DNA from: a virus
DNA length: 64,000 bases
Strand: one strand, 5' to 3'
IMG/VR virus record: IMGVR_UViG_3300050026_000388
Span: 1 to 64,000 of that record
Shown here: piece after piece, positions 1-57,814 of the stretch
How the letters are laid out: each line of letters opens with the position of its first letter
Numbering within the stretch: position 1 is the stretch's first letter
Translations under genes and position numbers: made by a program
The notes under the pieces: generated by a model
Seen by the model: only the letters and a program-made list of their open reading frames with translations
What the model was told of the DNA's origin: nothing
Databases searched by the model: none

Positions 1-1
1 T

Positions 2-1036: not shown

Positions 1037-1040
1037 AAAA

Positions 1041-2714: not shown

Positions 2715-2810
2715 ATGCCACACGATAAACGCGACAAAACAGAAGAAGAATATTTCAAAGTTATAGGAGCTTATAAATGATAAAAACTAGAGGATGGAGT
2801 CGGTTGCCTT

Positions 2811-26720: not shown

Positions 26721-27773
26721 ATGACACATTCAATAGCATATGGAATAGCAGCAGAATCGTATTCTAACCTTGCCGCACTCAAGAACGCGGGGATAATCGA
26801 TGCGCACCTCGTCCTACACGGTGGCGGCGTTACACTCCCGGCGCAATTCCCAAAAGATTGTGCGGCGGCCGGGATGAGTCCTATAGCTAATGTGGGTAAT
26901 GATGGGATTCCTGGGTGGAACGGAAGCCCCAGTTACTATCAAAACGCTGCCGCACTTGGCTATATGGCCGCAGGCGGCGAGAGCGAACAAGCCCCCGAAA
27001 TGGATGCCATTATGGACAATCTTATTTTCATGAACTATGGTGGAGAAGGGACTCCCGGGGGAAACCAAGATGACGTATTTGCCGTCACACACCCTGGCGC
27101 TGTTCACGGCCACGGCTGTGCTTCGTGGCTTGAAACCTATGGAAGTGCGGATGACTTCTGGAACTGGAACACTGTTGGCGAAGGCGCTAAGAATGCGAAG
27201 GCGCATGGCTGTAAAGAAGTTGGTATCCTTGTAGGAAACTGGATGATGAATTATTCATCACCACAGAACTACATCGACTTAGGAAACGCATACGAAGCAA
27301 ACGGTGTTACACTTGCCGGTATAATGGTTTGGGCGGGGTATGGTAGTGAGATGAACTCACTTTATAATCAATTTGCTGGATGGTATAAAGCATGGCAAGC
27401 AGTATGGCCTGCTAATATGACAACGATTGATAAGAGGTTTGGAACCCCGACACCAGGCCCAGCGCCACCGGCACCAACAGTAATCCCCACAAACTTTACC
27501 TTCGGCATTCATGCGCTTGACCCAACCGCCAAAACAGTAACCTACGTAGGCACAGCGCTCGACGCAGCCAACCACCCAATCGCGAATGCGCAGATAAACA
27601 TCGACCGCGGCGCTCAACAGGCCGCGCCAGTGACGTATGCCGGTAAAGCAGTTTCAGGCGCAAACGGCGCGTGGAGCTTTACTACACCAGTAACAAGCGG
27701 CGCGAACTACTTCTGGTTTGTCACAAAAGATGGCCGAAAAGGGTACTGGAGTAAGGACGTTGTGTGGGTATAA
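26721..27773 (+). CDS. Putative glycoside-hydrolase-like lysin with C-terminal binding domain
   Basis: N-domain is paralogous to 1041..2714, then a PT linker. C-domain is paralogous to that of the C1A peptidase 41128..42249. Confidence 0.55.
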   Translation: MTHSIAYGIAAESYSNLAALKNAGIIDAHLVLHGGGVTLPAQFPKDCAAAGMSPIANVGNDGIPGWNGSPSYYQNAAALGYMAAGGESEQAPEMDAIMDNLIFMNYGGEGTPGGNQDDVFAVTHPGAVHGHGCASWLETYGSADDFWNWNTVGEGAKNAKAHGCKEVGILVGNWMMNYSSPQNYIDLGNAYEANGVTLAGIMVWAGYGSEMNSLYNQFAGWYKAWQAVWPANMTTIDKRFGTPTPGPAPPAPTVIPTNFTFGIHALDPTAKTVTYVGTALDAANHPIANAQINIDRGAQQAAPVTYAGKAVSGANGAWSFTTPVTSGANYFWFVTKDGRKGYWSKDVVWV

Positions 27774-28269
27774 TGACAGAGAATAAGATTATATTTCCAA
27801 CGGGTAGATTTATTCTTGACGGCCCGATAATAGTTGAAGGGTGTATTGAGATTCGTGGAACGTTAACCCAAGGATTTTGGGATACATTCAAACCAAAATT
27901 TCTTAGTAGAAAGAAAAGATGACACGACCGTGTGAATGTGAAACTTGCACAAGAATAGACCGTGATGAAGGCATCATCGCCTTCGAAGGGGTAGGAGAAA
28001 CAATCTTCTGCCGGTTCCGTGACGTGTGGGTTTCGAGAGGCTGCGTCTGCGAGGAATTTTGGCCGCAATGTTGGTAACTAGGGACTAAAAATGCCGCTAA
28101 AGCACACAAAGAAATGCACAGAAGCAAAAGCCGAACGCAATAAGGGTAAGTATAAACCAGTCTATATCACCCAGGAGCATCACGACAGAATAGTCGCCAA
28201 AGCAAAGGTTGAGATGTGTACGAATGCGCATGTTGGAGAGTGTCTGATACAACAATTCCTTGATTCGTT

Positions 28270-28659
28270 ATGACAAACAACTGCCCCCACTGCAAAGGAT
28301 TGATAGACAACCCCCGATACGTCACCTGCAGCCGCTGCCGGCAGAAGGCGGCCGCTGCCTCCAAAAGGCGGCGGGATGCGCGTAAGGATGCAGGAAAGTG
28401 TTCAATTTGTGGGGCAGCAAAAGCAGACGATGGTTTCACTAGGTGTTTGACCTGCAGAGAAAAAGACCGGAATTACCGCCCCCGCAGACGGCCGGATTTC
28501 AAACATGAGCCAATGCATTCGGTAAATGCAAAAGTCCAAATTAAAACTGAGTTCATAGAGCTGCTAGAGGAAAAGGCGGCAGAGAAAGGAGTGAGCAAAC
28601 AAATAGTTTTTGAAGAGTTGATTGATAAATACATTGAGAAGGTTGTGGTGTGGGGGTAA
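28270..28659 (+). CDS. Zn-finger plus RHH-like protein
   Basis: Four CxxC pairs and a C-terminal VQIKTEF..GVSKQIVFEELI. Confidence 0.55.
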   Translation: MTNNCPHCKGLIDNPRYVTCSRCRQKAAAASKRRRDARKDAGKCSICGAAKADDGFTRCLTCREKDRNYRPRRRPDFKHEPMHSVNAKVQIKTEFIELLEEKAAEKGVSKQIVFEELIDKYIEKVVVWG

Positions 28660-28688
28660 AAAATGAAGCAAAGAGGAGAAGTTTATAA

Positions 28689-29258
28689 ATGGCAATAAAA
28701 GTTAATCAAAAAAGCGTTTTTGCGAGCAAGACGATGTGGGCGTCCGGAATTACGATTGCTCTCGGCTTAATAGCAAGCCATACCGGCGTCACTTTCGTCG
28801 CAGGCGAAGCAACAACGATAATGGGTTTTATATTCATGATATTGCGGTTGGTGACTAACAGCGCGATAAATTTAACAGTTCCTACAGGGGCGGCAGATGT
28901 GCCTGTGGAACCTGACCCCGTACCAACACCAGAGCCAACGCCTGAGCCGACACCAGAACCAATGCCCGCACCAGTTCCTGAGCCGACACCAGACCCAGCG
29001 CCGCCAGTTCCAGAACCAGAACCAGAGCCGCCGGCCCCCGAACCACCAGCGCCAGTAACACAAGCCTATAAAAGCAGTACAGGAACGCAAGGAGTGGTTC
29101 TCACAGCGCCAGAGGGAATTACCATAATGACGCCATCAATAACGCTGGAATCTATGCAAGACAGCCACGAAATCAATGACGAAGTTAGAGGTAAGATATT
29201 CACAGCTATGCGTAAGATGGATGTGGCCCCGATGCTGCCGGAAGCTAAGGATAAATGA
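28689..29258 (+). CDS. Holin-like N-terminal TM domain with Pro-Glu-rich stalk
   Basis: KSVFASKTMW..FMILRLVT, then (PEPT)n. Confidence 0.55.
   Translation: MAIKVNQKSVFASKTMWASGITIALGLIASHTGVTFVAGEATTIMGFIFMILRLVTNSAINLTVPTGAADVPVEPDPVPTPEPTPEPTPEPMPAPVPEPTPDPAPPVPEPEPEPPAPEPPAPVTQAYKSSTGTQGVVLTAPEGITIMTPSITLESMQDSHEINDEVRGKIFTAMRKMDVAPMLPEAKDK
28905..29055 (+). repeat. Degenerate coding repeat (PEPT/PEPE)
   Basis: Low-complexity Pro-Glu tract. Confidence 0.7.
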
Positions 29259-29623
29259 AAACATACTGCGCCGACTGCGGCAAAGAACTACCTACTTCCC
29301 ACTTTACCGTAATCGCCGGCGAGGTGTTCTGTCAAACGTGTGAGGATAAACTGATAAGGCAATACCTAGAAACAGCTGGGTTTGCGTGGAGATTAGAACA
29401 AGACTTCAGCACGAAGAAAACGGAGAATGGGAGACACTACGGCTAAAGGTCCTAAAGGGTAATAAAATGGCATTAGTCTGCAAAAACGTCGCGTCCAAGC
29501 ATTTCGGATATCAGTGCATCCACAGGTATAGTGGAGACGATAAATATATGCTGGAGCGCCTTTGCAGGCCGTGTTTGGAAGAACAGAAGTTAGAGAACGA
29601 AGTGGGAAAAAATGGGTAACTAA

Positions 29624-30190
29624 ATGACTCCTTGTTTGGATTGGAAAGGTGGAAAGAATTCGTGGGGTTATGGTCATATCTGGGATAAAGAAAAGAAAAA
29701 GCAAGTTAGAGCCCATAGATATTATTATGAAAAGTTAGTAGGTCCGATTCCTAAAGGTATGCTTGTGTGTCACAAATGCGATAACCGTGCATGTATTAAT
29801 CCCGAACATTTATTTTTAGGAACACATAAGGATAATACACAAGATGCGGTCAAAAAAGGGCGTATTAAGTTTCCGCTAATCATTCTTAAAGGGGAACAGA
29901 GCAATAGTGCGAAATTATCTCAAAAACAAGTCGACGAAATTCGTGCAGAATATTCACCGCGTTTGGTAACTAAACAGCAATTAGCTCAGAAATTTGGTGT
30001 AAGTTTAGGTACTGTCTACAACATCGCCCACAGTAAGTATCTCGGGACAAGAAAACTAACACAAGAACAAATCAATGAGATTAGGGTAAACTGCCCCCCA
30101 CATAAAGTGACGTGTCGAAGCCTAGCTGAGAAATTTGGGGTGGCTGAAAGCACAATTAATCGTATAGTGCTCGGTAAGTATTGGAAGTGA
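29624..30190 (+). CDS. HNH_3 endonuclease with two C-terminal HTH repeats
   Basis: RAHR..VCHKCDNRACINPEHLFLGT..DN, plus duplicated KL(S/T)Q.Q..EIR..LA.KFGV. Confidence 0.88.
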   Translation: MTPCLDWKGGKNSWGYGHIWDKEKKKQVRAHRYYYEKLVGPIPKGMLVCHKCDNRACINPEHLFLGTHKDNTQDAVKKGRIKFPLIILKGEQSNSAKLSQKQVDEIRAEYSPRLVTKQQLAQKFGVSLGTVYNIAHSKYLGTRKLTQEQINEIRVNCPPHKVTCRSLAEKFGVAESTINRIVLGKYWK

Positions 30191-30539
30191 TAGTATCCCC
30201 CATTATGCCTTATGTTGTAACTGCGCCAAAACGCATGATTCTGCCTATAATAGTTTTTATTGTTCGGCGCGATGTATTGTAATACCAAACGAAGAGGTAA
30301 TATGTCGTTGTGAATATTATACGCGGCGGAGTGATACGGAGATAGCGCAGTGACGCGACTCCCAACATTGAAGGAATTTCTAAAGCCATATCGCAAAGAA
30401 TATGAGGACCACCCAGATGAACATAAGTATATTTCCCGCGAAGAATATGAAAGACAGTGGGAGAGCTACTATTACGAAACAATCGGGCGGGGATTTATGA
30501 AACGATATGGTAAAGAAGCTACTGCAAAGGTGATTAAGG

Positions 30540-30710
30540 ATGAACATTGAGATACCTTTGTGTTTAGCATGTAAACATTTAATTGATATAAAGACCCAGA
30601 AGTGTGAGGCATACGATGTAATCCCTGATGCTATTTGGGATATTGAGGTTCAACATAATAAACCATATCCTGGCGACCACGGCATACAGTTTGAAGCGCG
30701 GCAGGATTGA
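30540..30710 (+). CDS. Small Cys/His protein (CxxCxH..C.A..IP..H..PYPGDHGIQFE)
   Basis: 56-aa ORF missing from the track, with a recognisable phage small-protein motif. Confidence 0.65.
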   Translation: MNIEIPLCLACKHLIDIKTQKCEAYDVIPDAIWDIEVQHNKPYPGDHGIQFEARQD

Positions 30711-31288
30711 AGAAGGCGGCAAGGTATAACGTATCTTTAAACAGGTGTATAACTAATCGTACATAACAAACAGATGATTGATACAGTAACTAAGGAACTA
30801 CTACAATGGTAGAATATATACAAGAAGATAAACAATTCAGGGTAGTCCTTGAACGTAATAAGCTGCTTACTGAAGATGAATGTATTGAGTGTGAACAATG
30901 CAAACACCCCAACCATAACCTGAAGATAGTGCGGCCGTGTAGTGTGTGTGGCACAATGTTCCAACAGTGGAATCCTAGGTTGTATACCCACTACTGTGAA
31001 GCGTGCGCTAAGAGCGCAGAAGGCGGCAAGAGGTGGCCGGAAAAGGGGGTGAGATGATTACTCTTGAAGAGGTATTAAATTACATCGAAGAACGATTAAC
31101 GATGGCGCAATTAAACGCTCAACTTATATGTGGTCATGATTGGGATGAAGGTTTCTATATGGGTAAAATCCATGTATGGGAAGAAATACGTGAGAAGATA
31201 AAAGAAGGGTGAAAGGCGGCAAGGTACAGTAAGAGATGTATTCTTTAAACAGATGTAGTATAACGAACGTAACGAACATGAGTAATAG

Positions 31289-32269
31289 ATGATTGATTCA
31301 ATTATATGCGGAGATTGCTTAGAGGTACTCCCTACGATTGAAGCTAGTTCGATTAACTTAGTTATTCTCGATTTGCCTTACAACATCAAGAAAGATACAT
31401 GGGATTCAATACCTGAGTATATGACGTTCGTCGGTGACGTATTCAAAGAATGTGAGCGTGTGCTTAAGGATAACGGAAGTCTTTATTGGTTTCATAATGA
31501 CTTTGATTCTATTGTTAATGTTTATACGTGGCTTAGGGATAATTCACGATTTGCCTTTAGGCAGTTCATAGTGTGGAACAAGAAGTATCCCGGTGTTGGC
31601 AATGAAGGATACCTACAAGGCTACAATGAACCGGAGATACTAAGGAACTACCAACGCTTTGCTGAGTATATCCTGTTCTTTGTGCGGCGCGAGAGTATGA
31701 AAACAGAATGGGATAAGACAGGACTCTTACGAGTGAAGCAGGATATTAATAACTTCACATCGCTGCGTGATTACTTCAAGTGGTTTCAGCAACAGCTCGG
31801 TATGACAAAGCTAGGGATAATGGAAAGATTAGGGCAATGTACTGACCATTGTTTTAGGTGGAATAGTTCACAGTGGGACTTGCCAACGGAAGAAACGTAT
31901 GCTGAATTATGTAAGCTACTTGATGAACAGATAGGATTAAGAGACTACGAAGACCTGCGCCGTGACTACGAAGACCAGCGCCGTGACTATGAGGGTCAGC
32001 GCTATACATTCAACAATCAGAAGACACACCATTCTGTATGGAATTATCCCGTAGAAAAGAAAGTAGGACACGTAACACCGAAGCCAGTAGCATTGATAGA
32101 GAACATAATTGAATACAGCAGCAATGAAGGCGACCTCGTTCTCGACCCAACAGCAGGCAGCGGCACAACCGCAGTAGCGTGTAAGCGTACAGGTAGACAC
32201 TATATCTGCATAGAGAAAGAAGAAGAGTATTGCAGGATAGCAGAGCGAAGAGTTAAGGAGATGCTATAA
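31289..32269 (+). CDS. DNA N6-adenine/N4-cytosine methyltransferase (beta class)
   Basis: DLPY, HVTPKP, VLDPTAGSGTT. Confidence 0.92.
   Translation: MIDSIICGDCLEVLPTIEASSINLVILDLPYNIKKDTWDSIPEYMTFVGDVFKECERVLKDNGSLYWFHNDFDSIVNVYTWLRDNSRFAFRQFIVWNKKYPGVGNEGYLQGYNEPEILRNYQRFAEYILFFVRRESMKTEWDKTGLLRVKQDINNFTSLRDYFKWFQQQLGMTKLGIMERLGQCTDHCFRWNSSQWDLPTEETYAELCKLLDEQIGLRDYEDLRRDYEDQRRDYEGQRYTFNNQKTHHSVWNYPVEKKVGHVTPKPVALIENIIEYSSNEGDLVLDPTAGSGTTAVACKRTGRHYICIEKEEEYCRIAERRVKEML
31943..32001 (+). repeat. 21-bp coding tandem repeat, ~3 copies (DYEDxRR)
   Basis: gactacgaagacctgcgccgt / gactacgaagaccagcgccgt / gactatgagggtcagcg. Confidence 0.8.
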
Positions 32270-32801
32270 TGCGGCAGGGAAAGCGGCAAGGTAAATCAAG
32301 ATGAAGTATATTCTTTAAACAGATGTAGTTAATCGGATAGGTAACTAAACATGACATACGCAATAGTAACTGAAGAAGTAAAGAAGAACAGGACTATCTA
32401 TTGTAGTAAGCCGTTCGTAGGTAAGCTCAAGGGTACAGGTAAGGATAAGGTACCAACCACTAACGAACTGATTGGATAGTAATAGAGTGATATAAGGAGA
32501 TGGATATACATGACGAGCGTATCAATAGACAAAGGAACTATCTTTGTTAAGATAGAGAGTGGCGACGCGCCTAAGCTAGTTATCGAACAAGCATTAGAAT
32601 TGTTTGATGCAGTCAATAAGAAGGATACCAAAACATAGAGCATAACAAAAGTAAGGAGACTATATAAAGAAGTAAGGAGATGAAGGAATAACAGTAATAA
32701 CAAAAGATTAGTATGTATATCCTATCTCAATACCATACATTCAATACAATGATGGAGAGCAAAGACAGCGCCGAAGGCGCGATATACCTAATCGGAGAAC
32801 A

Positions 32802-33152
32802 TTGATGGCATATAAGGATAAAGAGAAACGTAACGAGTATCAGCGCAACCTTATGCGCAGGCGGCGGTCAGCGGCAAACCCCAATCATTCGTTAGTAGAC
32901 TCTGAAGGCAAGACACTTAAAGAGTACAACCTCAAGACCGCAGCGCAGTTGAGGGAGATACTAGAGAGCACCCTCGATGAGCTGCAGCGCAATAAGGAAG
33001 TAGACATAGCGATTAAGATGAAGGCCGTGACGGGTGCCATCAAGGTAGCGGCAGAGCTGCTGAAGGTCACGGACTTGGATAAGCGAGTGCGTGAACTTGA
33101 AGACAAAGCTAAGGAGAAGACGGAAGGAAGTTGGAAGGACTCGCAGTTCTAG
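32802..33152 (+). CDS. Putative terminase small subunit
   Basis: Helical protein ending DLDKRVRELE, upstream of HNH and TerL. Confidence 0.45.
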   Translation: MMAYKDKEKRNEYQRNLMRRRRSAANPNHSLVDSEGKTLKEYNLKTAAQLREILESTLDELQRNKEVDIAIKMKAVTGAIKVAAELLKVTDLDKRVRELEDKAKEKTEGSWKDSQF

Positions 33153-33314
33153 CTTGACGGGGATACAAAAGATATATTTTGGATTGTAACGCTGGCCGTG
33201 TAGGACTTCTAGCACAAACCTGTGGACAAAACGACAAACGCGTGCGATATACTTCGAGTAAAACGCTTCGGCATTACACAACTGTGTTAAACTATTAGAG
33301 ACATATACTATCTT

Positions 33315-33728
33315 ATGCTATGCAAGAACTGCGGCATCAATGAACGCGAAGAACCTTTCGGCTGGTGCTCGATGTGTCTTGATGCTCCACCACTGGACAA
33401 ACAACCGAAGAAGGGCCGCTTCATCCTGAACGCAAAGGATACAGGTGGTGTGTGGCGCGAAGCATTGCGTGAGGCCTTGACCCCTATACCGCTGCCCGAG
33501 ACCAAGAAGCATCATCGCGTCGACAGGGGCAAGTCGCGCGCTGCGTGGCGGCGAGCATATAAACGACCGATACCAAGAGGATGGCACATCCACCACCTTG
33601 ACGGAAACCCTGAGAACAACGACCCAAACAACCTTGTCTGTGTCTCTCTTGAGCAGCACATCAATCTGCACGACGCTAATGGGGATACCCTAGCGGTTAG
33701 ATTACTGAAGCGCGGGTTTAAGAAGTAG
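33315..33728 (+). CDS. HNH endonuclease (packaging-associated candidate)
   Basis: WHIHHLDGNPENNDPNNLVCVS..H, adjacent to the terminase. Confidence 0.8.
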   Translation: MLCKNCGINEREEPFGWCSMCLDAPPLDKQPKKGRFILNAKDTGGVWREALREALTPIPLPETKKHHRVDRGKSRAAWRRAYKRPIPRGWHIHHLDGNPENNDPNNLVCVSLEQHINLHDANGDTLAVRLLKRGFKK

Positions 33729-34030
33729 CGAAGGCCGAAGGCCGGAGCGAAATTAACACTGGCGAATCGCCAACGAAAAAAATAAAAAAGAAATTGAAAA
33801 GTTGGAGGGGGGGGGCGGTAAGCGAGTCAACTCTATTCCAACTTGGCCAAACACCCCACTCATATAAAAAAAATGGGAGACTAATTTGAAGCATTTGTTA
33901 GTTTGCAGGCGAGAGGCGGCCGGCAGCGGCAGCGGTTGCCGGCAGCGGCAGCAAATTAACACTGGTCAACTCGGCAGGTATATAAACATTTAGGAGAATA
34001 TCATAACTGTGCAGGATGTTGCAGAGGTAT
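33729..34030. other. Candidate cos/pac region and TerL promoter
   Basis: GGCC-GAA-GGCC hairpin, G9 tract, A tracts, GGCAGC repeats, operator at 33956 and TATATAAA at ~33979. Confidence 0.4.
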
Positions 34031-34034
34031 AATA

Positions 34035-36020
34035 GTGCCAGGTAGCGACCCCATCGAAACCCGCGTAAAGAAACTTGAACGCAGCCATCAACCCAAAGAC
34101 GTTTCACGCATACCAAAAACCCCCGAAGAATTCTGCGCTTCCATCGAATTCGAGCCCGACCCCTGGCAACTCGACCTCATGAACGTCATCGCCACCGACA
34201 AACCCGCTAAAATCCTCGCCAACTGCGCCAGGCAATCCGGTAAAGAACTTCACGTTGACACGCCAGTCCCAACCCCCACGGGATGGACGACAATGGGCGA
34301 CTTGAACGCTGGCGATACAGTATTTGATGAGCAAGGAGAACCAACAAAAGTTACGTACTGCTCTGAGATTAGGATGCACCCCACATATCGCGTCGTTTTT
34401 TCAGATGGAAGTGAGATTATAGCTAATGGCGAGCACTTATGGACGACGCTTGATGCTGCGACCCGCAGCGCAGTATCCAGAAGTGTAAAAGACGTGCCGG
34501 TTTATTGGCCGTTCTGGAAATCACACGGTGCGCGTGGGCACGCTAATAAAAACCACCCTCAACAAAAGCACGCAAAGACACTGACAACGGAAGAAATTCG
34601 CGCGACAATACGCTATGGCGCGCGGCAAGATACAAACCACGCAATACCTACAACGCAACCACTCAAATTGCCAGAAGCCGAACTTCCGATTGACCCATAT
34701 GTTCTCGGCGTGTGGCTCGGGGACGGAACCTCAGCAGATGGTAGTATAACCTGTGTAGAGGAAGAGATAATTGGTAGCATCCGAGCGAGAGAATATGTTG
34801 TTCGCAAGCAAAACACGCGTTCTGATAGGGCGCAGGGGTGGGGCATTCTTGAACTACACCCTAAATTACGTGCATCAAACCTTACAAACAACAAACACAT
34901 CCCCTCGATATACCTACGTGCATCCACAGAACAGCGCCTAGCGCTGCTTCGCGGCCTTATGGATACGGACGGGTCAGCGAGCAGCGGCGCACGAAGCATG
35001 TGTGAATTTAGTGTAACATCAAAACCCCTCGCCGATGGGACGATGGAGCTATTACATAGTTTAGGAATACTCGCGCGCATAAAAGAAAGCCACGCAAAAT
35101 TAAACGGGCGTGTAACCGGACTACGCTACCGTATCACATTTACACCGTGGTTTAATCCGTTTTCTCTGAAACGCAAGGCAGCGCGCGTCAATTTAAACCC
35201 CGCGCGCCTGCGCAAAGGACTCAGCAAACTTCGCTTTATCACAGATATACTATCAAACGGCGTTCATAATGTTCGCTGCATTGCAGTTGATTCCCCATCA
35301 GGATTATACCTCGCAGGCAAATCGATGATTCCAACCCACAACACCCAAACGGCGGCCATCTGTAGCGTCTACCATGCTATAACCGGCTCCAACCGCACCG
35401 TAGTTATAATCAGCCCGTCAATGCGACAGTCACAGTATATGTTCCGACGCATTATGCAGGTATACCGCGCGGCCCTACGCCCAGTGAGAGCCGTCTCGGA
35501 AACTGCACTCCAACTCAGACTCGAAAACAACTCGTGGATAGTCGGCCTTCCCTCATCGGAGGAGACAATCCGCGGCTTAACCGCTTCTCTGTTGTGGGTG
35601 GAAGAAGCATCCCGCTGCTCTGACTCCCTAATCAGCGCTGCACTTCCTTTCGTCGCCACAATCCCCAACGCCAAACTGTGTATGATGAGCACCCCCGCAG
35701 GTCAAAGGGGCATGTGGTACAACGAGTGGAGTAAAGGAGTCGGCTACAAAAAGATTCTAGTGAACGCGGACCAGTGCCCACGCATCTCCCGCAACTTCCT
35801 TGACAGCCAGCTCGAGATGATGGGCAGCCGCTGGTATCAGCAGGAATATTACAACTCCTTCGAATCAAATGAAGCCTCGCTATTCAGGCATGAGGTTATC
35901 CAGAAGTGTATCCGCGATGATTTGGAAACGTTGGATGACGTGCTGGACGCCGCCCTTGAACTAGACGACGCCGAGCAGGAAGAAGACGGAATTAATATTG
36001 ACGATATAGGTTTGGATTAG
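34035..36020 (+). CDS. terL: Terminase large subunit ATPase domain, intein-containing
   Basis: PDPWQ, Walker A ARQSGK/T split by the intein, IRG..LWVEEA (Walker B), motif III STP. Confidence 0.92.
   Translation: MPGSDPIETRVKKLERSHQPKDVSRIPKTPEEFCASIEFEPDPWQLDLMNVIATDKPAKILANCARQSGKELHVDTPVPTPTGWTTMGDLNAGDTVFDEQGEPTKVTYCSEIRMHPTYRVVFSDGSEIIANGEHLWTTLDAATRSAVSRSVKDVPVYWPFWKSHGARGHANKNHPQQKHAKTLTTEEIRATIRYGARQDTNHAIPTTQPLKLPEAELPIDPYVLGVWLGDGTSADGSITCVEEEIIGSIRAREYVVRKQNTRSDRAQGWGILELHPKLRASNLTNNKHIPSIYLRASTEQRLALLRGLMDTDGSASSGARSMCEFSVTSKPLADGTMELLHSLGILARIKESHAKLNGRVTGLRYRITFTPWFNPFSLKRKAARVNLNPARLRKGLSKLRFITDILSNGVHNVRCIAVDSPSGLYLAGKSMIPTHNTQTAAICSVYHAITGSNRTVVIISPSMRQSQYMFRRIMQVYRAALRPVRAVSETALQLRLENNSWIVGLPSSEETIRGLTASLLWVEEASRCSDSLISAALPFVATIPNAKLCMMSTPAGQRGMWYNEWSKGVGYKKILVNADQCPRISRNFLDSQLEMMGSRWYQQEYYNSFESNEASLFRHEVIQKCIRDDLETLDDVLDAALELDDAEQEEDGINIDDIGLD
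34245..35342 (+). mobile_element. Class 3 intein with LAGLIDADG homing endonuclease (366 aa)
   Basis: Starts ELHVDTP. Block B HLW, block F VRCIAV, block G PTHN/T (the WCT triplet). LAGLIDADG motifs LGVWLGDG and LRGLMDTDG. Confidence 0.92.
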
Positions 36021-36029
36021 AGGATTAAA

Positions 36030-36803
36030 ATGACACGATTCACCCACGACGAATCCCCCAACTTCCGCGACCCTGAACCGGAGGCCACCCGCGGCGGTAT
36101 CTACGTTTACGGCCTCGAGCGCACAATAAACCCAGAAACTGACCTCGACGGCCGCCAGTTGCGGCAGGGGGACGAACCCCCACCGGAATCGGGCAAACTC
36201 AGAGCCTACGCAATCGGCCTCGACATCGGCGCGCGGCATGACCGCACCGCTTTGGCAGTCTTAGAGCTGAGATATAAGGGCGACACCCCACACTTATTCG
36301 TGAAATACCTCAAGAGATTAAAACTCGGCATCCTCTTCGCCGACGTGGCAACCCAAACCCGCCGCGTTGTCTCACTCCTGAGAAAAGAAGCCACGAAAAA
36401 CGGTGCGCGTTGTGATATAACCCTACTGGTCGACGCAAGCGGAGTCGGCGGCGGGGTGGCAGAGATGATAGTCGCCGCTCTCCCGAACGAAGACGTCCGG
36501 TCGGTCTTCATTACTGGTGGCCAATCGGCACGGTTGGAGGACGGCGGCCATGTCTACCTAAGCAAATCCCTTTTAGTATCAAACCTAGTCGCCCTCTTCG
36601 AATCCCACAGGATTTACTTATCAAAATACTCAAGGGAGATGGACGCGCTGCTCGATGAACTCGCCAACTTTGAAGTAAAGGTATCGGAAGACACCGGCAA
36701 CGAATCTTATAACGCTAAAACCGGAAAGTTTGACGACCTCGTAACCGCTCTAGGGCTGGCGGCATGGTGGGGGGAACGAAATCGCCCGGCGAGGCTATTC
36801 TAA
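36030..36803 (+). CDS. Terminase large subunit nuclease (RNase H-like) domain as a separate ORF
   Basis: AIGLDIG..DRTA..VDASGVG..DDLVTAL. Confidence 0.88.
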   Translation: MTRFTHDESPNFRDPEPEATRGGIYVYGLERTINPETDLDGRQLRQGDEPPPESGKLRAYAIGLDIGARHDRTALAVLELRYKGDTPHLFVKYLKRLKLGILFADVATQTRRVVSLLRKEATKNGARCDITLLVDASGVGGGVAEMIVAALPNEDVRSVFITGGQSARLEDGGHVYLSKSLLVSNLVALFESHRIYLSKYSREMDALLDELANFEVKVSEDTGNESYNAKTGKFDDLVTALGLAAWWGERNRPARLF

Positions 36804-39800
36804 TCATGACACAGGATGAAATACGCGCTGTGCTACTCACCGCGAAAGGCTGGCGGTCATCTGCGGAACTCGCGACGGCGATAGGCTGCACAAGGAAGGT
36901 AGCAATGGTTGGATTGAGGCGGCTGTATAAAAAGAGAGACATAGAGCGCACCCGCGCGCTACGCGGGGGGTGGGGGTATCGGCTGGCCGGTAGAAGGTGA
37001 AACGTGACTACTAAAGAACCAAAAACAAAACGAACCAAACTGTTTACGATAAAGTGCCCGGTGTGCAAGCACGAGTTTAAAGTCGCGGACCAAAACAATT
37101 ACGTCTGCACAAACTGCTATGAGCGGCATGCGCCGGATTGGATTAAGCCAAAGGGGTTATACACGTCCAGAAAACCGAAATCAAAACCCAAAGTAGATAA
37201 AGAAGGAGACTAATCTAACGTATGATACAACTCGCGTGCCCGCTAGACAACGCATCAGTCAGATTCGCTGAACTCCCTGGCGTATACCCTAAGCGCTGCC
37301 TTGATTGCGAATACTTCCGCAGCGACAGGAAAGGATGTTATTGTGGTAGGAAAACAACAGATTAAAAAGGCGCTTTTGGCGCTTACGTGGAACGAGTGGG
37401 TCGAACTATTTCTTATGATAGTAATAACCGGCAGTCTGATAGGCTTCTGGGGTCGATAATGAAAGCAGAGATAACCTGTCCATCCTGCTCAACGGGATTA
37501 ACCTTATTCCGCGGCGAAGTGCTGGCAAACCGCTGCCTTGAAATCAGGGCGGCATGCATGTGTCCGATATGCGCGTCGACGTTCACGGTAACAATACGCA
37601 TCGAACGTGAGTTAACAGTGGTTAATTACGAAGAAACCGAGGAAGCGATAGAGGGGGAGTAAGATGTGTAAAGAAACGCCTGAGACGCGCGACACACCAT
37701 GCCACTTGTGCAAATACGCGGGCGACGTCAATGAGGAAGGATGGTATATCTGCGCGGCACACGGGTTCCCACTTAAAGAGGGGGCTGAATTATTCCCCAC
37801 TTTGTGTATCTACTTTAAGGAGCGATGATGGGCCTTGTCCAGGTGACAGTGAAAGCAGTGTATTGCCCGGCGCTTGAAGCGTATACACCAATCGAAGGAT
37901 GCCGCACATGTAAGAACAACGAAGGGTGGGCGTTCGCAAAGGATGAAGACCACCATAACTTTGGGGTTATATGCGGCAGGTCTATAGACGGCTACATCCC
38001 AGAAAAAGTGCACCGGCACGATAGCCATTGGTGGCCTGGGAGAGACGAATCGTGGCAGTGACAACATGACAAAAATAATGCCTGTTCGGTGTCCCGCCTG
38101 TAGGAAACCGTTGTTACCGTCACTCCTTACAATCACCGATGACGATGACATAGAAAAGAAACAGTATGTGCTTTGCCCGTGGTGTCAAACAAAAGTATAT
38201 CTGCCGTTTGCTTCAAACGGCGGCAGCAACCCAACGCTCCATGAGCAAAACAGGCATAGCTCCCGGGACCCCATCACTGGAAGATTTGTAAGTGATAGCG
38301 ATGAGTAATAGATACACAATAGATAGAAAGTATACTTCGATGACTATCCGTCATTGTCCTAAGTACAACGTCCATGACCACTATGTTTTTACCTGCCTTA
38401 GCTCGTGCGAAGACTTCGAAGGGATTGTTGAAGGCGCGGTAATCTGCAACTACAAGTACCCGCCGACGGAATCCTCTGTTGACGAAAGCCCCAAACCTAG
38501 AAAGATTCCAGGTGTTGGCGGTCCATTGGATACGCCGAGTGTGGACGGGAAACCGAGTGGAGAGCGTGCACGGGACACGGCCGTCGGTCCAGAATTTGCA
38601 ATCCCTGTTGTAGACATGGGACCGCTTAAACCTAAAAAGCGGAAGGAGAAGAAGAAGAATGGATGCTAAAAATGCATTGGCGACGATGTACGGCATGGCA
38701 TTAACGACCTCGAATAATGACTCAACCTTAGATTATCTAGACAAGCTTTTCAAATGCATCCGTGATGCTATTGAGGAGAAAAAGAATGGATGAACTTATC
38801 AGCCAAGAACAAGCCGCTAGGAACCAACTAATACAGAACCTGCTTGTGGTTACGGGAATCGTTACCGCCGCGGAGATGTCGAACGTTGGCAGGAAGGTAG
38901 TGATGGATGCGTTGATGCAGTTGATGGCGTACCTAACCGCCCCGACGGATGAAAAGGTAATCGAAAACGTAACCCCCTTATACCCCTTGTATGGTTAAGA
39001 TTAGGTGAATATGACTGACGAAACCGACGAAGAGCAACGCATTGTCCAGGCGGCTATCGGCGGCTGGCTGCACGCGATGGTCGGGCGGCAGGAAAAACTA
39101 GAGGAAGACATTAGAGAACTTGCCGCGCAGGTTGAAATGCTGACTGCCGAGATGACGCGAATATTAACTGCACTGGGGGTTGATGCAGATTGGTCGAAGA
39201 CGAACAGCGCCCAATAATCTGCCCGCAGAAGAAAGTGAAATACGGTGCGTGCTTTGACTGTGAGTACTGCGAAAGAATCGGTTTCTGCGACTACCCTACC
39301 CCGGTAGACACACTCATCCGTGAAATCAAGCGCCGGCCCATGAGTACCCCGCTGTGGATGGGTGCGCTGCAGCGAAACACTACTGAAGTACAACTAGACG
39401 GCCGCCGCTGGTGCGACCGAAACGGCAACGAGGTTTTTATAATACAACCGTCACTTCAGGGCGCAAGCAAGAGCAAGAGGAAAGAAGAAAATGACGTGTG
39501 AAATGTGTATCGACTGCGGCAAGGTGTTCGAGCAATGGAATTCTCGGCTGTACGTGTATTACTGCAAAGAATGTAACGATAAAAGTATGTATGACGAAGC
39601 AGTGAAAAAGTTAGAAGGAAAAAGATGATTAAGAAAGTTTGTAAAAACTGTATTCATTGGGGAAAGAACGAACCGTACAGAAATGGAAAGCCACGGTTCG
39701 GCGGAGAATGTGATAGCGAAAAGTTTGTTTACGACGGTATGGATACCTATTACAATAAAGAGCCAGACGAGGATATGTTACAATACGGCGACTTTGAAGG

Positions 39801-41123
39801 ATACTCAGCGGACTTTGATACTGGCCCAGAGTTTGGATGTATTCACTTTGAACCGCACCGCGCGCGCGAGGAAAAAGATGAGGACGTAAAAGACAACGAT
39901 GACCACGATGCTGCAATGGAAGCAGCCGGCGAACAATGGAACCCCGAAGACGGATGTTGGGATTAAAATTGCGCGGAGAAAAAAGATGACTAAAATCGAG
40001 AAGAAATCAGAAACTAAGTGCATCGACTGCGAGCATTACCTCCTAAAAAACGAGACGGTAAGCTTAGATTTAATATTTGATTCTGTGGTAGCGACAGCTA
40101 AATACATCTGCGAGAAGGGTGACAAACCCAATATGATTAACTGGTGCGACCACTACTCGCGCGCCATTATCGAGGACGCAATCGTGTGGAAGCGGGGAGA
40201 TGTTGACGAGGACCCATAATGAACTGCATCGACTGCAAATATATGAGCAAGTCAGCAGGCAGCCAGTTCAGCGCGGGCATTCATGTGTACTGCCTCAAAT
40301 TAAAGTGCGTGGTCGAGCGCGACCACGGCTGCCCATCAGGAGAAAAAAGGAGGAATAAAAAATGATATTAGGACAACCAGATTGGTTGGTATATGTTATA
40401 GGATTTGTAGTATGGAGTGTGGCGCTGTACCTACTAGGATTCATCCACGGGATGCACCATAAGGAGATTGTATACATCCGCGAACGTAACGCGAAGCACG
40501 AAAATTTAGTAACGAAGGGGTGGTAAAATACATAAGCATGAGTTTCACCATAGTTGCTTCAAAGGCCGCAGCCTGAGAAACGACGCGCTGAAAACACTTG
40601 TAATGTGCATAGCCTTCGTGGTTATCGTAACAGTGATATTTACGTCAACGTGTTGGCCGTGTCTATGACGATGCGAGACGATATACTTAAGGTTTTTACT
40701 AGTGGAGAAGAGATGAAGAAAAAGAAAGACGAAGAGTTAGAATTAAAAAAGCCAGGGCCTGATGAAGACCGAGTACAGACATGCGAGCGCGCGATATGTG
40801 GTATGCTTGACCGGCTTGATTCCCTTGAAAAAAGCATGGACCACGCGTGGGGGGAAATCGCGAAGGGAGTACACCTGTGCAACTCCGATACGCGGCTGTA
40901 TACAGTAGAAGAACGCTTAACGCAGTTAGAGCAGAATTCATTAGATAACTTTCATGACATTCGAGCAGTAAAACATAAAGAACCCGAACCGATATTTGAA
41001 GAACTTGAAAAACGTGGGCTTGTCAGAAAAAGTAGCCAGACAGGGGACCTCTTGCTAACTGGAAAAGGAAGGCAACTTAAAAAACTGTTTGATGATACAT
41101 ATATTGTAGATATACGGGAGTGA
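36786..41123 (+). other. Cluster of small, mostly Cys-rich (CxxC) hypothetical ORFs
   Basis: Tightly packed ORFs at 37004, 37825, 38066, 38292, 39005, 39625, 39899 and others. Confidence 0.65.
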
Positions 41124-41127
41124 TAAG

Positions 41128-42249
41128 ATGGTTAAGATATACCCACATGGAATGGGGTGGAAACCTCAATTAAAAGATTTAAGAGACTATAAATTCACAG
41201 CGCGACCGGAACAAGTAGAAGCGCTACCCGCTAGCGCGGACATACGCGCGTATGACACACCAATATTAGACCAGGGAAATTTAGGAAGCTGCACGGCTAA
41301 CGCGGGCGTAGCAGTATTTATGTACCTACAGAAAAAGCGGCTAGGCACATTTACCCAAGGTTCGCGACTCTTTATTTACAAAAAAACCCGCGATATGGAA
41401 GGTGTGACAGGCGATGTTGGCGCAACCCTTAGAGACACCGCCAGCGAGATGGTTAAATACGGCGTACCCCCGGAATCCGAGTGGCCATATAACGAAGGTC
41501 AGTTCGACGTCGAGCCGTCGCCGGCAGTGGCAGCGGACGCTGCTAAAATGGAGTCAACTAACTACTACCTGTGCGACGGCTCTAATCCAAGCGCGACAAT
41601 CACCAACATAAAGGCCGCCGTGGCGACCGCAGGACTTCCGGTGATGTTCGGTTCGACGGTTTACGAATCAATCTTCAATACTGGCAGCAATGGTATGATA
41701 GCCAACCCCGGCGGCCAAGTAGCTGGCGGCCACGCGATGGCCATAATGGGATACGACGACCAGAGGCAATGCTTCTTGATTAAGAATTCGTGGGGCTTGG
41801 GATGGGGTGCACAAGGCTACGGTTGGATGGGCTACACCTACTGGACCTCGGGGCTTGCTTCGGATTGTTGGGTCGTCGCAGATGAGAGCGAACTGGATGG
41901 ACCCACCCCAACACCTACTCCAACGCCAACACCTACCCCAACGCCAAACCCTCATGTAGCGCCTGCAGGCTTCTCGCGTGGCTTTCACGCCGTTAGCCCC
42001 ACAAGCAAAACGGCCACGCTTGTCGGAAGCATGGTAGGCGCGGATAAAAAACCATTAGCGAACGGGCAAATTAATATCTATCGCGCGGGGCAGCACGCTA
42101 AGCCGTGGGTTGGGGTGGCCACACCCGTCAGTGATTCTGCAGGAAACTGGAATGCTACTGTACCGATAGTCACAGGAGCCAACTACTTCTGGCTTGTTGG
42201 AATCGATGGAAAGAATGGATACTGGACGCAGGACGTGGTGTGGATTTAG
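41128..42249 (+). CDS. Papain-family (C1A) cysteine peptidase with PT linker and C-terminal binding domain
   Basis: DQGNLGSCTAN (Q, C), GGHAM (H), KNSWG (N). Confidence 0.9.
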   Translation: MVKIYPHGMGWKPQLKDLRDYKFTARPEQVEALPASADIRAYDTPILDQGNLGSCTANAGVAVFMYLQKKRLGTFTQGSRLFIYKKTRDMEGVTGDVGATLRDTASEMVKYGVPPESEWPYNEGQFDVEPSPAVAADAAKMESTNYYLCDGSNPSATITNIKAAVATAGLPVMFGSTVYESIFNTGSNGMIANPGGQVAGGHAMAIMGYDDQRQCFLIKNSWGLGWGAQGYGWMGYTYWTSGLASDCWVVADESELDGPTPTPTPTPTPTPTPNPHVAPAGFSRGFHAVSPTSKTATLVGSMVGADKKPLANGQINIYRAGQHAKPWVGVATPVSDSAGNWNATVPIVTGANYFWLVGIDGKNGYWTQDVVWI

Positions 42250-42599: not shown

Positions 42600-43318
42600 A
42601 CTACTACTGCTCGTGGTATGGGAAAGACGTGCAACCTACCGCAGAGACGTGCTTTTGGTTGTTCGGCCCCCGAGCCGCGTGCGATGCATACGTAGAACTG
42701 ACGCGCGGCAACGGAGACGGGCCGCGCTGCGCGTATTTGGTGCAGGTATACGGGGTAAAGCCTAGAGAAGAATGATAAACTACGACAACGTCATCCGGCT
42801 TACCGAGTGCCGCCGCTGCATGCTGCGGGCGGCCAGGAACCACGACCACTGCGAGGACTGTTCAATCACAAGGGATGCGCGGATATATATCGCGTTAAGA
42901 GAAAACGAGAGGAAAAAGAATGATTGGGAGTAGCGTAAGAGAAGCATTACTTGTCTTGTACGGTATGGCAATGGCGTCTGCAAGCACAGAAACCGCGCTA
43001 GCGCGGGTAGATAATTCCTATGGGACTATCTGCGATTACATTGAGTGGTCGGAGAAAAATAATGGTTGATAAATGGGACGAAGCGAGCCGTAAAGGGAAT
43101 GAAATACCAATACGGCCGGTAGACGACGAAAGCGGCCCGAAAATATTAGGGATGCCGGCTAAGACGGTCGTTCGTTTTATTGGGGGTCCTGATGGCCAAC
43201 CACAGATAGCGATACCATCCCAACCCGATAGTCGATGGGGTATGGTAGTCCTCACATTGGCGCTAGTATTCGCGTGGCTGTTCGGGATAATGTCGCAAGC
43301 ACTGTTCCATATCGTCTG

Positions 43319-43588
43319 ATGTGGCAGGATTTTTGCATACTCTCATTAAACCTAGTGTTTGGGTTCACATTAATACCTCAAGTACGTGAACTATACACAA
43401 AGAAGACTTCAATGAGCATCGCATCGTGTAGTATGACTTTCTCCGCTTTAATAATCCTTGGGGTTACGTATGCGACTCTTGGACTTTTGCTTGCAGTGTG
43501 TGGCAACCTACTCGACTTGGCGGCATGGGGCTCACTGTTGGGGTTATCAATTATACATCGTAATAGGGTGAAAAATGCCAATTTGTAA
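43319..43588 (+). CDS. PQ-loop (SemiSWEET-like) small membrane protein
   Basis: LIPQV after TM1, with three TM helices. Confidence 0.55.
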   Translation: MWQDFCILSLNLVFGFTLIPQVRELYTKKTSMSIASCSMTFSALIILGVTYATLGLLLAVCGNLLDLAAWGSLLGLSIIHRNRVKNANL

Positions 43589-44032: not shown

Positions 44033-45736
44033 ATGCCACCTAAGAAACCCAAACGCACCCCCGAACAAACCGCCCGCCTACGGCAGTTTGACGCTATGTT
44101 GCGCGCCTTCAAACGAGTCCAAATGAGGGTCGGCGCAGTTACTATCAACAATGCCATCAAAAAGGACAGGGGCAACATCAGTTCAATCTTATCACACGGC
44201 GACATCAACAGAATAAAACAGGAACTCAACCACTACTTCCGCGCGACATCGCCAGTGATATGGCGCAACGCGCTTAAACAAGTTTGGTTAGACGCCGGCG
44301 CGGCTAGCATTGAGCTACACCACTCATTCTTCACTGGTACAAAAAGTTCAACATATGATGATGAACTTGATATAGAACAAAAGGATTGGTGGGATTCTGA
44401 AGCCGATGAATGGGCACCCCTACCGGAATTTGACTTCTTTACTAACGTTACTAAAGCCGCCGACCCACCCGATACATGGGCGCAGTCGGTTGATGATTAC
44501 CTTCGCGGAAACGGAGCTGGAAGGGCGGACGGGATTAGTTCAACAACCGGCGACCAAGTGATGAACGCGATAGCAGACGGCGTGGCTGCCGGCGAACCAA
44601 CACGAGACGTAGCAGCCCGCGTGGAGTCGCAACTTGACGAGACGTGGCCGGGACGCGCAGACACCATCGCGCGCACGGAAACCGCGGCGGCAACGAATCA
44701 GGCTTCTTTAGAGGACGCGAAGGCAACTGTTCCAGGAATGAATAAGACGTGGATATGCTCGTTTGTAAACTCAAGAGAATGGCACCAAGATGCCGACGGC
44801 CAGAGTGTGCCGCTTGAAGAGCCGTTCATCGTGATGGAAGAAGAGTTAGACGTCCCAGGCGACCCTAGTGGCGAACCGGAAAATGTGATTAATTGTATGT
44901 GCTCGGTTGGCTACGAGTCGCCAAGCGGCGAAGAAGTTGGCGAAGGTGAAGAAGCTGCAGCCCCAGAACTCACTGATGAGCAAACAGCTCAGCTTGCGGA
45001 TATGTTCGACCAGTTAGCCGCCGGCGAGGGCGAGCTGACTCCTGAAGAAGGTACAAATATAGCTGATGGCATAAGTAGTATTATGGGTACATCGGCAGAG
45101 GGCGCACCAGAAACATACACAGATTATAAAGACGCATATAATGCGTTTCAACAGTACGCTGATGACACCCTAACAAAGGATGAGCGGAAACTTGTAACAG
45201 ATTACACCATACGCGAGTTCCAGCCAATCAACTACTTTTTGCGCTACGGAGGGAAAGCCGGCTGGGGACCAGACTTAACTGCGGACATTGAAGCTGAAGC
45301 TAATAGTATGGTTGGAATAATACAAAACGCCCCACAATTTGAAGGAACAGTTTATAGGGCGGTATGGACCCCATACATTAGCGATTTTTATACACAGCTA
45401 CAAAGTGCGCAAGTCGGTGATGAGCTTTCGTTTGCTGGAATAACTTCAACGTCGGCCGAACCCGATACGATGGGTAATATTTTAGAGGCCATGAAGCAAA
45501 GTGGAGTTACCGGAAACAATCAAATTTATTATACAATAGAAGATGCTAAAGGAGCCGTTATACAACCCTTAAGTGGAATGCCGCAGGAAAATTTAAATGA
45601 GGTAGTACTCAATGACGGTGTGAAAGGAGAGATAACTAACATTAAAGAAGTACAAGACGTAGAAGGGCGCACACAATGGCCAAATCACCCAAGTAATTGG
45701 AAGGATAAGTTGTATATAACTGTGAAGATGTTGTAG
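44033..45736 (+). CDS. MuF/SPP1-gp7 minor head protein with C-terminal ADP-ribosyltransferase domain
   Basis: IARTET..KTW..REWH..DG..PGDP..VINCMC (MuF). INYFLR..VYR..TSTS..NEVVL (R-S-E clade ART). Confidence 0.85.
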   Translation: MPPKKPKRTPEQTARLRQFDAMLRAFKRVQMRVGAVTINNAIKKDRGNISSILSHGDINRIKQELNHYFRATSPVIWRNALKQVWLDAGAASIELHHSFFTGTKSSTYDDELDIEQKDWWDSEADEWAPLPEFDFFTNVTKAADPPDTWAQSVDDYLRGNGAGRADGISSTTGDQVMNAIADGVAAGEPTRDVAARVESQLDETWPGRADTIARTETAAATNQASLEDAKATVPGMNKTWICSFVNSREWHQDADGQSVPLEEPFIVMEEELDVPGDPSGEPENVINCMCSVGYESPSGEEVGEGEEAAAPELTDEQTAQLADMFDQLAAGEGELTPEEGTNIADGISSIMGTSAEGAPETYTDYKDAYNAFQQYADDTLTKDERKLVTDYTIREFQPINYFLRYGGKAGWGPDLTADIEAEANSMVGIIQNAPQFEGTVYRAVWTPYISDFYTQLQSAQVGDELSFAGITSTSAEPDTMGNILEAMKQSGVTGNNQIYYTIEDAKGAVIQPLSGMPQENLNEVVLNDGVKGEITNIKEVQDVEGRTQWPNHPSNWKDKLYITVKML

Positions 45737-57765: not shown

Positions 57766-57814
57766 GCGCGCGGTGTAATTGCGCACTCAATACAAAACTA
57801 TAGGAGTAAAAAAC

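Follow-up and report, generated by a model that had tools for sequence, protein, structure and literature searches.

Two putative enzyme genes with a common C-terminal domain

The window analyzed here, 64,000 nucleotides (nt) long, is the first 64 kb of the 102,175-bp IMG/VR record IMGVR_UViG_3300050026_000388 (CheckV completeness, 93%), which represents a tailed virus as judged from its gene content (terminase, portal, HK97-type capsid, and tail genes in Pfam and PHROG scans). We focus on two genes, 26721–27773 and 41128–42249, which encode the proteins P0001 (350 amino acids, aa) and P0002 (373 aa), and on the gene at 1041–2714, which encodes P0003. An earlier note, made from the letters alone, had presented these three open reading frames (ORFs) as putative envelope-degrading enzymes of an archaeal virus that have exchanged domains, and all three are present as given there. 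Residues 252–350 of P0001 and 275–373 of P0002 align over 99 aa without a gap at 48% identity (E = 1e-28), in agreement with the common C-domain that the note had described; a Pro/Thr-rich linker precedes it in both proteins, and P0001 and P0002 hold the only copies in the 102-kb record. The N-domains are, as had been claimed, unrelated to each other: that of P0002 is a Peptidase_C1 domain, and that of P0001 has no Pfam or PHROG family. The latter recurs in P0003 (residues 16–210 of P0001 against 12–203 of P0003; 28% identity, E = 5e-10), whose label as a tail gene is borne out by its position in the tail module. P0001 and P0002 share one plan, in which a Pro/Thr linker connects a catalytic-type domain with a module at the C-terminus, and no signal peptide was found in either sequence. 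The parts of the three proteins are as follows.

1041–1706, + strand: paralogous triosephosphate isomerase (TIM)-barrel domain of P0003, residues 1–222 (pairwise match; family hidden Markov model, HMM)
1707–2714, + strand: remainder of P0003, with Gly/Ser/Thr linkers and uncharacterized domains without a Pfam or PHROG match
26721–27440, + strand: predicted TIM-barrel domain of P0001, residues 1–240 (AlphaFold2 predicted local distance difference test score, pLDDT, 88), with the candidate catalytic residues Glu87 (26979–26981) and Glu138 (27132–27134)
27441–27485, + strand: Pro/Thr/Ala-rich linker of P0001 (from the sequence; pLDDT <50 at residues 247–251)
27486–27773, + strand: immunoglobulin-like (Ig-like) module of P0001, residues 256–350 and stop codon (identity to the C-domain of P0002; fold model)
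41128–41880, + strand: xylellain-type C1A peptidase domain of P0002, residues 1–251 (Gln49, Cys55, His202, and Asn220)
41881–41961, + strand: (Pro-Thr)n linker of P0002 (from the sequence)
41962–42249, + strand: Ig-like module of P0002, residues 279–373 and stop codon, predicted to pair with the module of P0001

In the public annotation, P0001 is only 299 aa long, starting at Met52 (26874 instead of 26721) and thereby lacking strands 1 and 2 of the barrel. We consider the long form correct because an AGGAG ribosome-binding site lies 8 nt upstream of the ATG at 26721, the N-terminus is conserved in homologs, and strands 1 and 2 are located there.

The N-domain of P0001 gave nothing significant in Pfam, PHROG, or PDB sequence searches. 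In the AlphaFold2 model of P0001 (34-row alignment; mean pLDDT, 88.3), residues 1–240 form eight alternating strand/helix units, and the C-terminal residues 256–350 make up a seven-strand sandwich. A Foldseek search of the PDB with P0001 returned barrel-plus-sandwich glycoside hydrolases (GH) of the families GH30, GH26, GH2, GH158, GH71, and GH18 at about E = 1e-6, and VIA, which is independent of Foldseek, placed SleL on top (Z = 14.5; root-mean-square deviation, rmsd, 3.5; 215 residues aligned), followed by XIP-I, ChiA, and hevamine. The barrel also matched capsular depolymerase and GH5 proteins in a viral structure library and DUF4434/GHL10 at 0.87 in the ESM Atlas, the last being a lead only. 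It resembles SleL (4S3J), hevamine (1HVQ), and the DUF4434/GHL10 protein Cwp19 (5OQ2) as a compact (beta/alpha)8 barrel (VIA Z = 14.5 to 12.3), and in GH18-type barrels, as in this one, strand 4 is followed by acidic residues and strand 6 by a Tyr, with a Trp at strand 8. It differs from GH18-type barrels in having no sequence similarity to them and in carrying its second invariant carboxylate on strand 6. Membership in GH18 itself was ruled out by the motif on strand 4, where GGESE replaces DxxDxDxE and E89 is conserved in only 61 of 72 barrel domains. From these models, the N-domain of P0001 is confidently predicted to be a (beta/alpha)8 TIM barrel. It represents a rare family without a name, the GH family membership of which is uncertain.

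Conservation was counted over the 72 barrel domains, with positions read from the AlphaFold2 model of P0001. E87, at the C-terminal end of strand 4, and Y140, just after strand 6, are present in all 72; E138, at the C-terminal end of strand 6, is present in 71/72; and W204, at the end of strand 8, in 70/70. The residues conserved less strictly are N60 (62/72) and D61 (63/72) after strand 3, E89 after strand 4, E93 (66/72) at the start of helix 4, and E166 (66/72) at the start of strand 7. TIM-barrel enzymes carry their active sites on the face formed by the C-terminal ends of the strands, which is where the invariant residues of this barrel lie. The note had foretold a TIM barrel with two Glu residues facing one cleft; the model yielded a TIM barrel, and the two residues that had been singled out are E87 and E138, the best-conserved Glu residues of the family. 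Glu87 and Glu138 are the likely catalytic pair of P0001. The tail copy P0003 retains the equivalents of E87 (Glu83), E138 (Glu132), Y140 (Tyr134), W204, N60, and D61 and lacks those of E89 and E166. P0003 belongs to its own barrel subfamily, with matches to family members up to E = 6e-47, and the family HMM aligns with its residues 1–222.

This is a rare family: of 1.84 billion cluster representatives, 48 belong to it, and a search of 185,579 species genomes of bacteria and archaea (one genome per species) gave 101 pattern matches, none of which was confirmed as a barrel relative. A metagenomic protein, P0086, has a divergent barrel-like N-domain with VSSEGG instead of GGESE; its Ig-like C-domain shares 78–79% identity with those of P0006 and P0010, two ordinary barrel proteins, which adds another instance of module exchange.

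The claim that 41128–42249 encodes a protease held well. P0002 matches Pfam Peptidase_C1 with 57 bits (cut-off, 20.7) over residues 33–237 and PHROG 16701, annotated as "peptidase," with E = 2e-17. Among solved structures its closest relative is xylellain of Xylella fastidiosa (PDB 3OIS); the match reaches E = 1e-39 over residues 7–251, including the short N-terminal segment, and Gln49 (oxyanion hole), Cys55, His202, and Asn220 align with the catalytic residues of 3OIS. As judged from the sequence, P0002 therefore contains an intact xylellain-type C1A peptidase with the full catalytic set. It is like xylellain in its short prokaryotic C1A domain and unlike it in being viral and in possessing the additional (Pro-Thr)n linker and Ig-like domain. 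We also considered a pseudomurein endoisopeptidase and rejected it, as Pfam gave no C71 match and only 16.6 bits for C39_2, under the cut-off of 24. The C1 peptidase genes of two related loci (L017:6814–8805 and L018:6814–8805) are split by an intein with an HNH endonuclease (Intein_splicing, E = 7e-17; HNH_3). Inteins tend to occupy genes that are important to a virus, and the presence of one within a papain-family peptidase is unusual, suggesting that the gene matters to the virus.

Paired enzymes and matched modules in related viruses

Eighteen related viral loci, from tailed viruses of peat and wetland metagenomes, were fetched, and the pairing of the two enzymes was counted over 19 contigs (identifiers beginning with L and G are ours). 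The barrel and the C1 peptidase occur together on 14 of the 19 related contigs, the remaining contigs being short or incomplete. Their genes are directly adjacent in L003, L004, L005, L006, L017, and L018 and 1–4 kb apart in L015, L019, and L020, and the terminase gene adjoins the pair in most of these loci. In five further contigs, the peptidase is not within the flank that was fetched; four of them encode it at another place, as the window does. Ten of the 14 contigs holding both enzymes have the same kind of C-terminal module on both, and the kind varies by lineage.

Ig-like domain of ~100 aa: both enzymes in the window, L015, and L020
W..SLGG repeats of a putative PLL-like lectin propeller (PF26607): both enzymes in L005, G025, G026, and G027
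Peptide of 15–18 residues after the linker: both enzymes in L017/L018 and L019

The PLL assignment is based on precomputed PF26607 matches on 13 homologs and on the nearest clusters in the atlas (Beta-prop_PLL, 0.92, 183 shared features). Matching also extends to the sequences of the modules. In the L015/L020 lineage, the C-modules of the two partners in one genome are 81–91% identical at the aa level (69–74% at the DNA level), compared to 45–50% with other lineages; the corresponding values are 64% versus at most 42% in G027 and 55% versus at most 48% in G025. In the window (48%) and in G026, the partner from within the genome is not the nearest one. The idea in the note that a common module aims two unrelated enzymes at one place was strengthened by these comparisons, since both the pairing and the matching recur with three module types. 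The occurrence of a lectin-type module as an alternative to the Ig-like one argues for a glycan or glycoprotein target.

The Ig-like domain was found in the protein collection only behind the barrel, behind the divergent barrel-like N-domain of P0086, or behind Peptidase_C1. A word-based homolog search with the C-domain of P0002 alone found only two peptidases, and a profile search added more. On the maximum-likelihood tree of the Ig-like domains, the type of N-domain must have changed at least twice, and both types occur together in one 100/100 clade. A structure model of the C-domain alone is a seven-strand sandwich (pLDDT, 95.5), for which VIA gave Z = 8.9 (rmsd, 2.8–3.0; 86–92 residues aligned) to macroglobulin (MG), invasin, intimin, and SSV19 tail domains. 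Foldseek found no match below E = 1e-3 in the PDB with this domain alone, and Pfam CarboxypepD_reg scored 18 bits, under its cut-off of 32.3. The Ig-like fold that had been expected is thus predicted in a generic form. Small ORFs with an Ig-like domain (L015:6975–7301, also in L013, L014, and L020; sub-threshold Big_1/CarboxypepD_reg) directly follow the barrel gene in the L015 lineage, and they share 48–50% identity with the last ~106 aa of a protein of 417 aa from the appendage region of the record (70926–72179).

We also modeled a complex of the Ig-like modules of P0001 and P0002. The score was 0.87, compared to 0.01 for the best of three controls, for chains that are paralogs with alignments made by ourselves, so that a heterodimer and a homodimerizing domain are not separated by it. 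Of 80 solved complexes, 58 attained this mark, as did two of 110 mismatched pairs. The contact agreement among the runs was 100%, and the pLDDT of the partner was at least 92. The predicted interface is formed by the first strand (FGIHALDP in P0001 and RGFHAVSP in P0002) and the last strand (..DVVWV/I), the most conserved parts of the C-domain. The model predicts that the two Ig-like modules pair with each other, and the module may accordingly join the two enzymes instead of, or besides, binding the envelope. Pairing and target binding are not mutually exclusive; some Gram-positive endolysins oligomerize through their wall-binding domains.

As the note had suggested, the C-domain was sought in surface proteins of the candidate host (see below). 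The matches were weak (E = 4e-5 to 4e-3) and confined to tandem Big_3_5/CarboxypepD_reg repeats in two large proteins of one genome; they reflect generic kinship of fold, with no sign of a receptor relation. These proteins, of 1060 and 893 aa (L040:3946–7128 and L040:12660–15341; genome G021 of the candidate host class), consist of tandem Big_3_5, CarboxypepD_reg, and transthyretin-like domains; their genes flank three GT4 glycosyltransferase genes, and they are possibly glycosylated surface proteins of the candidate host group.

Genome setting and probable host

Positions 1–3270 of the record recur at 98803–102072 (offset, 98,802; three mismatches), and the last ~100 nt diverge. This terminal repeat of 3,270 nt implies that the genome is complete, with a circularly permuted or terminally redundant unit of ~98.8 kb; the collection lists the record as linear, despite the repeat. 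The repeat also places gene 1041–2714 after the tape-measure gene, two tail genes, and the Gp37-like gene, indicating that P0003 is encoded by a tail-tip gene. A near-DNA-level search of the phage collection with the virus gave zero matches. The neighboring and other features are listed below.

2–1036, + strand: Sipho_Gp37-like tail protein (Pfam, E = 2e-15), directly upstream of P0003, with a full copy at the contig end
2811–4862, + strand: right-handed beta-helix (depolymerase-like) protein (Pfam Beta_helix, E = 1e-21), directly downstream of P0003
18776–19960: IS6-type transposase
34035–36803, + strand: large terminase in two ORFs, with a LAGLIDADG intein in the first, located between the two enzyme genes (the pair adjoins the terminase in relatives)
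40362–40526, + strand: 54-aa single-pass membrane ORF (hydropathy scan), 0.6 kb upstream of the peptidase gene, a weak holin-like candidate
43235–43588, + strand: 117-aa multi-pass membrane ORF without a Pfam match, 1 kb downstream of the peptidase gene
44033–45736: MuF-ADP-ribosyltransferase
53659–55140: portal
57779–59035: HK97-type capsid protein
90009–96920 of the record: tape-measure gene

In L016, a tail module (L016:4327–12967) contains three barrel copies, in the order Gp37-like protein, 241-aa P0003-like protein, 898-aa barrel protein, beta-helix protein, and 648-aa P0003-like protein with a weak Big_3_5 match. The first terminase ORF of the window (34035–36020) comprises the ATPase part and the intein, and the second (36030–36803) comprises the RNaseH-like nuclease part; the split into two ORFs is also seen in L005, L013–L015, and L020. 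The region of 36.8–43 kb is crowded with small zinc-ribbon ORFs, and a putative zinc/iron-chelating protein of the CxxCxxCC type (PF03692; 42240–42599) overlaps the stop codon of the peptidase gene.

Small membrane ORFs occur near the pair in several lineages. Homologs of the 117-aa ORF (53–66% identical) lie near the enzyme pair in L004 and L006; this ORF has an internal "PQ" motif and, by eye, is possibly PQ-loop/SemiSWEET-like. A 48-aa ORF with two predicted membrane helices, identical in L003 (1483–1629) and L006 (5821–5967), directly precedes the adjacent pair and is the best holin-like candidate in the group. Upstream of the pair in L015 and L020 is a 64-aa membrane ORF. The small membrane ORFs that accompany the pair in L003, L006, L015, L020, and the window showed no homology to each other or to known holins.

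The archaeal host assumed in the note received independent support from the transposase. The best match of the IS6 transposase, at 92% identity, is in a metagenome-assembled genome (MAG) named "Methanomicrobia archaeon" from the SPRUCE peat bog, and other copies are 91, 88, and 85% identical in MAGs, two of them in complete 2–2.7-Mb chromosomes. The genomes with these four copies all belong to one GTDB class of 24 species, and mcrA is present in all five tested genomes of this class. The host is probably a methanogen of this small archaeal class, which we take to lie outside the pseudomurein-walled orders. From the MAG names, the habitat, and two publications (10.1101/2025.08.21.671631; PMC12296737), the class is probably the Bog-38/Candidatus Methanoflorens lineage. 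A GT2 gene was tried as a host marker and dropped, as it gave only weak matches (27–34% identity).

A candidate envelope-degrading cassette

Inferring activity, substrate, timing, and host from the observations above, we propose a two-enzyme envelope-degrading cassette, acting more probably at exit, together with a virion-borne barrel paralog for entry; in our judgment, the chances that this proposal is right are evenly balanced. The free barrel and the peptidase would be the two halves of a cassette conserved in tailed viruses of peat and wetland, probably viruses of methanogens. The matched module would bring both activities to one place through a common glycosylated target in the envelope, through assembly of the two enzymes in a complex, or through both, and the barrel would cut the glycan part, and the peptidase the protein part, of a glycoprotein envelope. 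The free pair would act at the release of progeny, which is favored by the absence of signal peptides and by the position of the genes outside the tail module, adjoining the terminase and often with a small membrane ORF nearby. The neighborhood of the terminase is the classical site of lysis cassettes, as in lambda. The tail-tip barrel of P0003 would cut glycan at entry, and its position between the Gp37-like and beta-helix proteins fits such a role.

Several observations weigh against this proposal. The ranking by VIA is flat, the GH18-type barrels (Z = 13–14.5) standing barely above unrelated TIM barrels (Z = 12–13), so that the word "glycosidase" for P0001 rests on the fold and the conserved carboxylates. 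The matching of modules is broken in four contigs (L003, L004, L006, and G028). In the window itself, the two enzyme genes are 14 kb apart, and their C-domains, 48% identical, are no closer to each other than to those of other viruses. The ambiguity of the complex model between a heterodimer and a homodimer belongs here as well, as does the fact that the membrane ORFs are not homologous across lineages and that such ORFs are common in viral genomes. The assignment of the host rests on one mobile gene, a 74% identical relative of which lies in a MAG labeled Acidiferrales bacterium. A provirus search with the capsid protein in the 24 genomes of the candidate host class found nothing, and DNA searches with 22–62 kb of the window against this class found no convincing spacer of clustered regularly interspaced short palindromic repeats (CRISPR), returning only low-complexity matches to the Pro/Thr linker and short chance-level or conserved P-loop-like matches.

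A more specific form of the proposal, which we put forward tentatively and consider possible but doubtful, is that the matched modules link the barrel and the peptidase in a hetero-complex, a bifunctional glycosidase–protease that would be the long-sought lysin of head-tailed viruses for the glycoprotein envelopes of archaea without pseudomurein. In this form, the propeller blades would close only by oligomerizing, the short peptide would be strand-like, and the interface would co-evolve within each lineage.

The free enzymes might instead be virion-associated entry enzymes, the module docking both on one site of the virion (tail, neck, or head fiber) or binding the host from the particle. Ig-like and lectin-like modules are typical of structural and decoration proteins of phages, the fold matches include the SSV19 tail protein and phage Big-1 or tail proteins, and the C-terminal peptide of 15–18 aa resembles a docking tag more than a wall-binding domain. 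In addition, the paralogous barrel is clearly virion-borne, and homologs of the appendage-region genes of this virus come after the pair in L003 and L004. However, the genes lie outside the tail module and beside the terminase, no other protein of the 102-kb genome has the C-domain that would serve as a like-with-like docking partner, and the virus already has hydrolase-like proteins on its tail. We therefore regard this explanation as unlikely.

The resemblance of the barrel to the cortex-lytic SleL, hevamine, and Cwp19, which are among its top structural neighbors, raises the possibility of a bacterial host, such as a peat Acidobacteriota member, and of a divergent pair of peptidoglycan endolysins, in which a muramidase- or chitinase-like barrel and an endopeptidase would share a wall-binding domain. 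Gram-positive endolysins likewise have a linker and a binding domain behind the catalytic domain, and the best matches of the capsid protein in the phage collection are to bacterial phages (35–41% identity); the transposase relative in the Acidiferrales MAG points in the same direction. Against this, the transposase copies of highest identity (92–85%) all come from archaeal genomes that carry mcrA and belong to one class, the failure to confirm a relative of the barrel in the species genomes would be unusual for a peptidoglycan hydrolase, and promoter-like sigma-70 sites are not enriched. A bacterial host is thus quite improbable in our estimation. Soil and peat viruses carry glycoside hydrolases as auxiliary genes, many TIM barrels of similar Z-score are metabolic enzymes, and neither P0001 nor P0002 has a signal peptide, but auxiliary metabolic genes for environmental glycoproteins, or intracellular tools (for protein processing, or acting on a sugar metabolite or modified DNA), are the least probable explanation, because a Pro/Thr linker followed by a lectin-type or Ig-like module is an architecture of the extracellular type, strict protease pairing and matched modules across lineages would be unexpected of metabolic genes, a paralog is located in the tail tip, and the peptidase of L017 and L018 contains an intein.

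The proposed envelope-degrading cassette can be compared with known lytic systems. Gram-positive phage endolysins consist of a catalytic domain, a linker, and a C-terminal wall-binding domain, and the C-terminal domains oligomerize in CTP1L/CD27L and Lys170; multi-enzyme lysis sets are also known, such as LysA plus LysB of mycobacteriophages. P0001 and P0002 resemble the modular endolysins in the order of the N-terminal catalytic domain, flexible linker, and C-terminal module without a signal peptide, in the shuffling of modules, in the presence of two enzymes of different bond specificities per virus, and in a C-domain predicted to self-associate. They differ in that their catalytic domains lie outside the known endolysin families, the probable host has no murein, one module is matched between two enzymes across lineages, and the holin partner is only a candidate.

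To our knowledge, PeiW, PeiP, and PeiR are the only characterized lysins of methanogen viruses, and the only characterized archaeal lysins cut pseudomurein. Like PeiW/PeiP (Peptidase_C71) and PeiR (C39-like), P0002 is a cysteine peptidase of a tailed virus, probably of a methanogen, that is proposed to open the envelope, but it belongs to papain family C1 rather than to C71 or C39. The Pei enzymes have N-terminal pseudomurein-binding repeats and no glycosidase partner, whereas P0002 has a C-terminal Ig-like module and a barrel partner. P0003, beside a beta-helix protein, resembles the virion-borne glycan-degrading sets of phage tail-spike and tail-fiber depolymerases, and it is unlike them in that its barrel is N-terminal and shared with a free, non-structural paralog.

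Taken as a whole, the reading of the earlier note is partly supported: it stood with respect to the predicted folds, the peptidase, and the archaeal host, and its idea of a common targeting module was strengthened. Binding of the envelope by the module, an S-layer as the target, and the division of roles between exit (free enzymes) and entry (tail copy) are hypotheses, and the matches of the C-domain in host surface proteins were weak and generic. The three-part build of the enzymes and the shuffling of their modules follow a logic known from modular phage lysins. What is new is the barrel family, its pairing with a C1A protease, the matched interchangeable modules, and the probable setting in methanogens without pseudomurein. 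According to a 2024 review, the factors with which head-tailed viruses of archaea break open the cell envelope are "still completely uncharacterized" (PMC10791045). The genes described here offer a specific and recurrent candidate set for hosts without pseudomurein, with a new hydrolase-type family, two named candidate catalytic residues, and an intact C1A protease, and the interchangeable matched modules give direct access to how the enzymes may be targeted or joined in a complex. In northern peatlands, the probable hosts dominate among the methanogens, and the enzymes could become tools to lyse these uncultured methanogens or to probe their envelopes.

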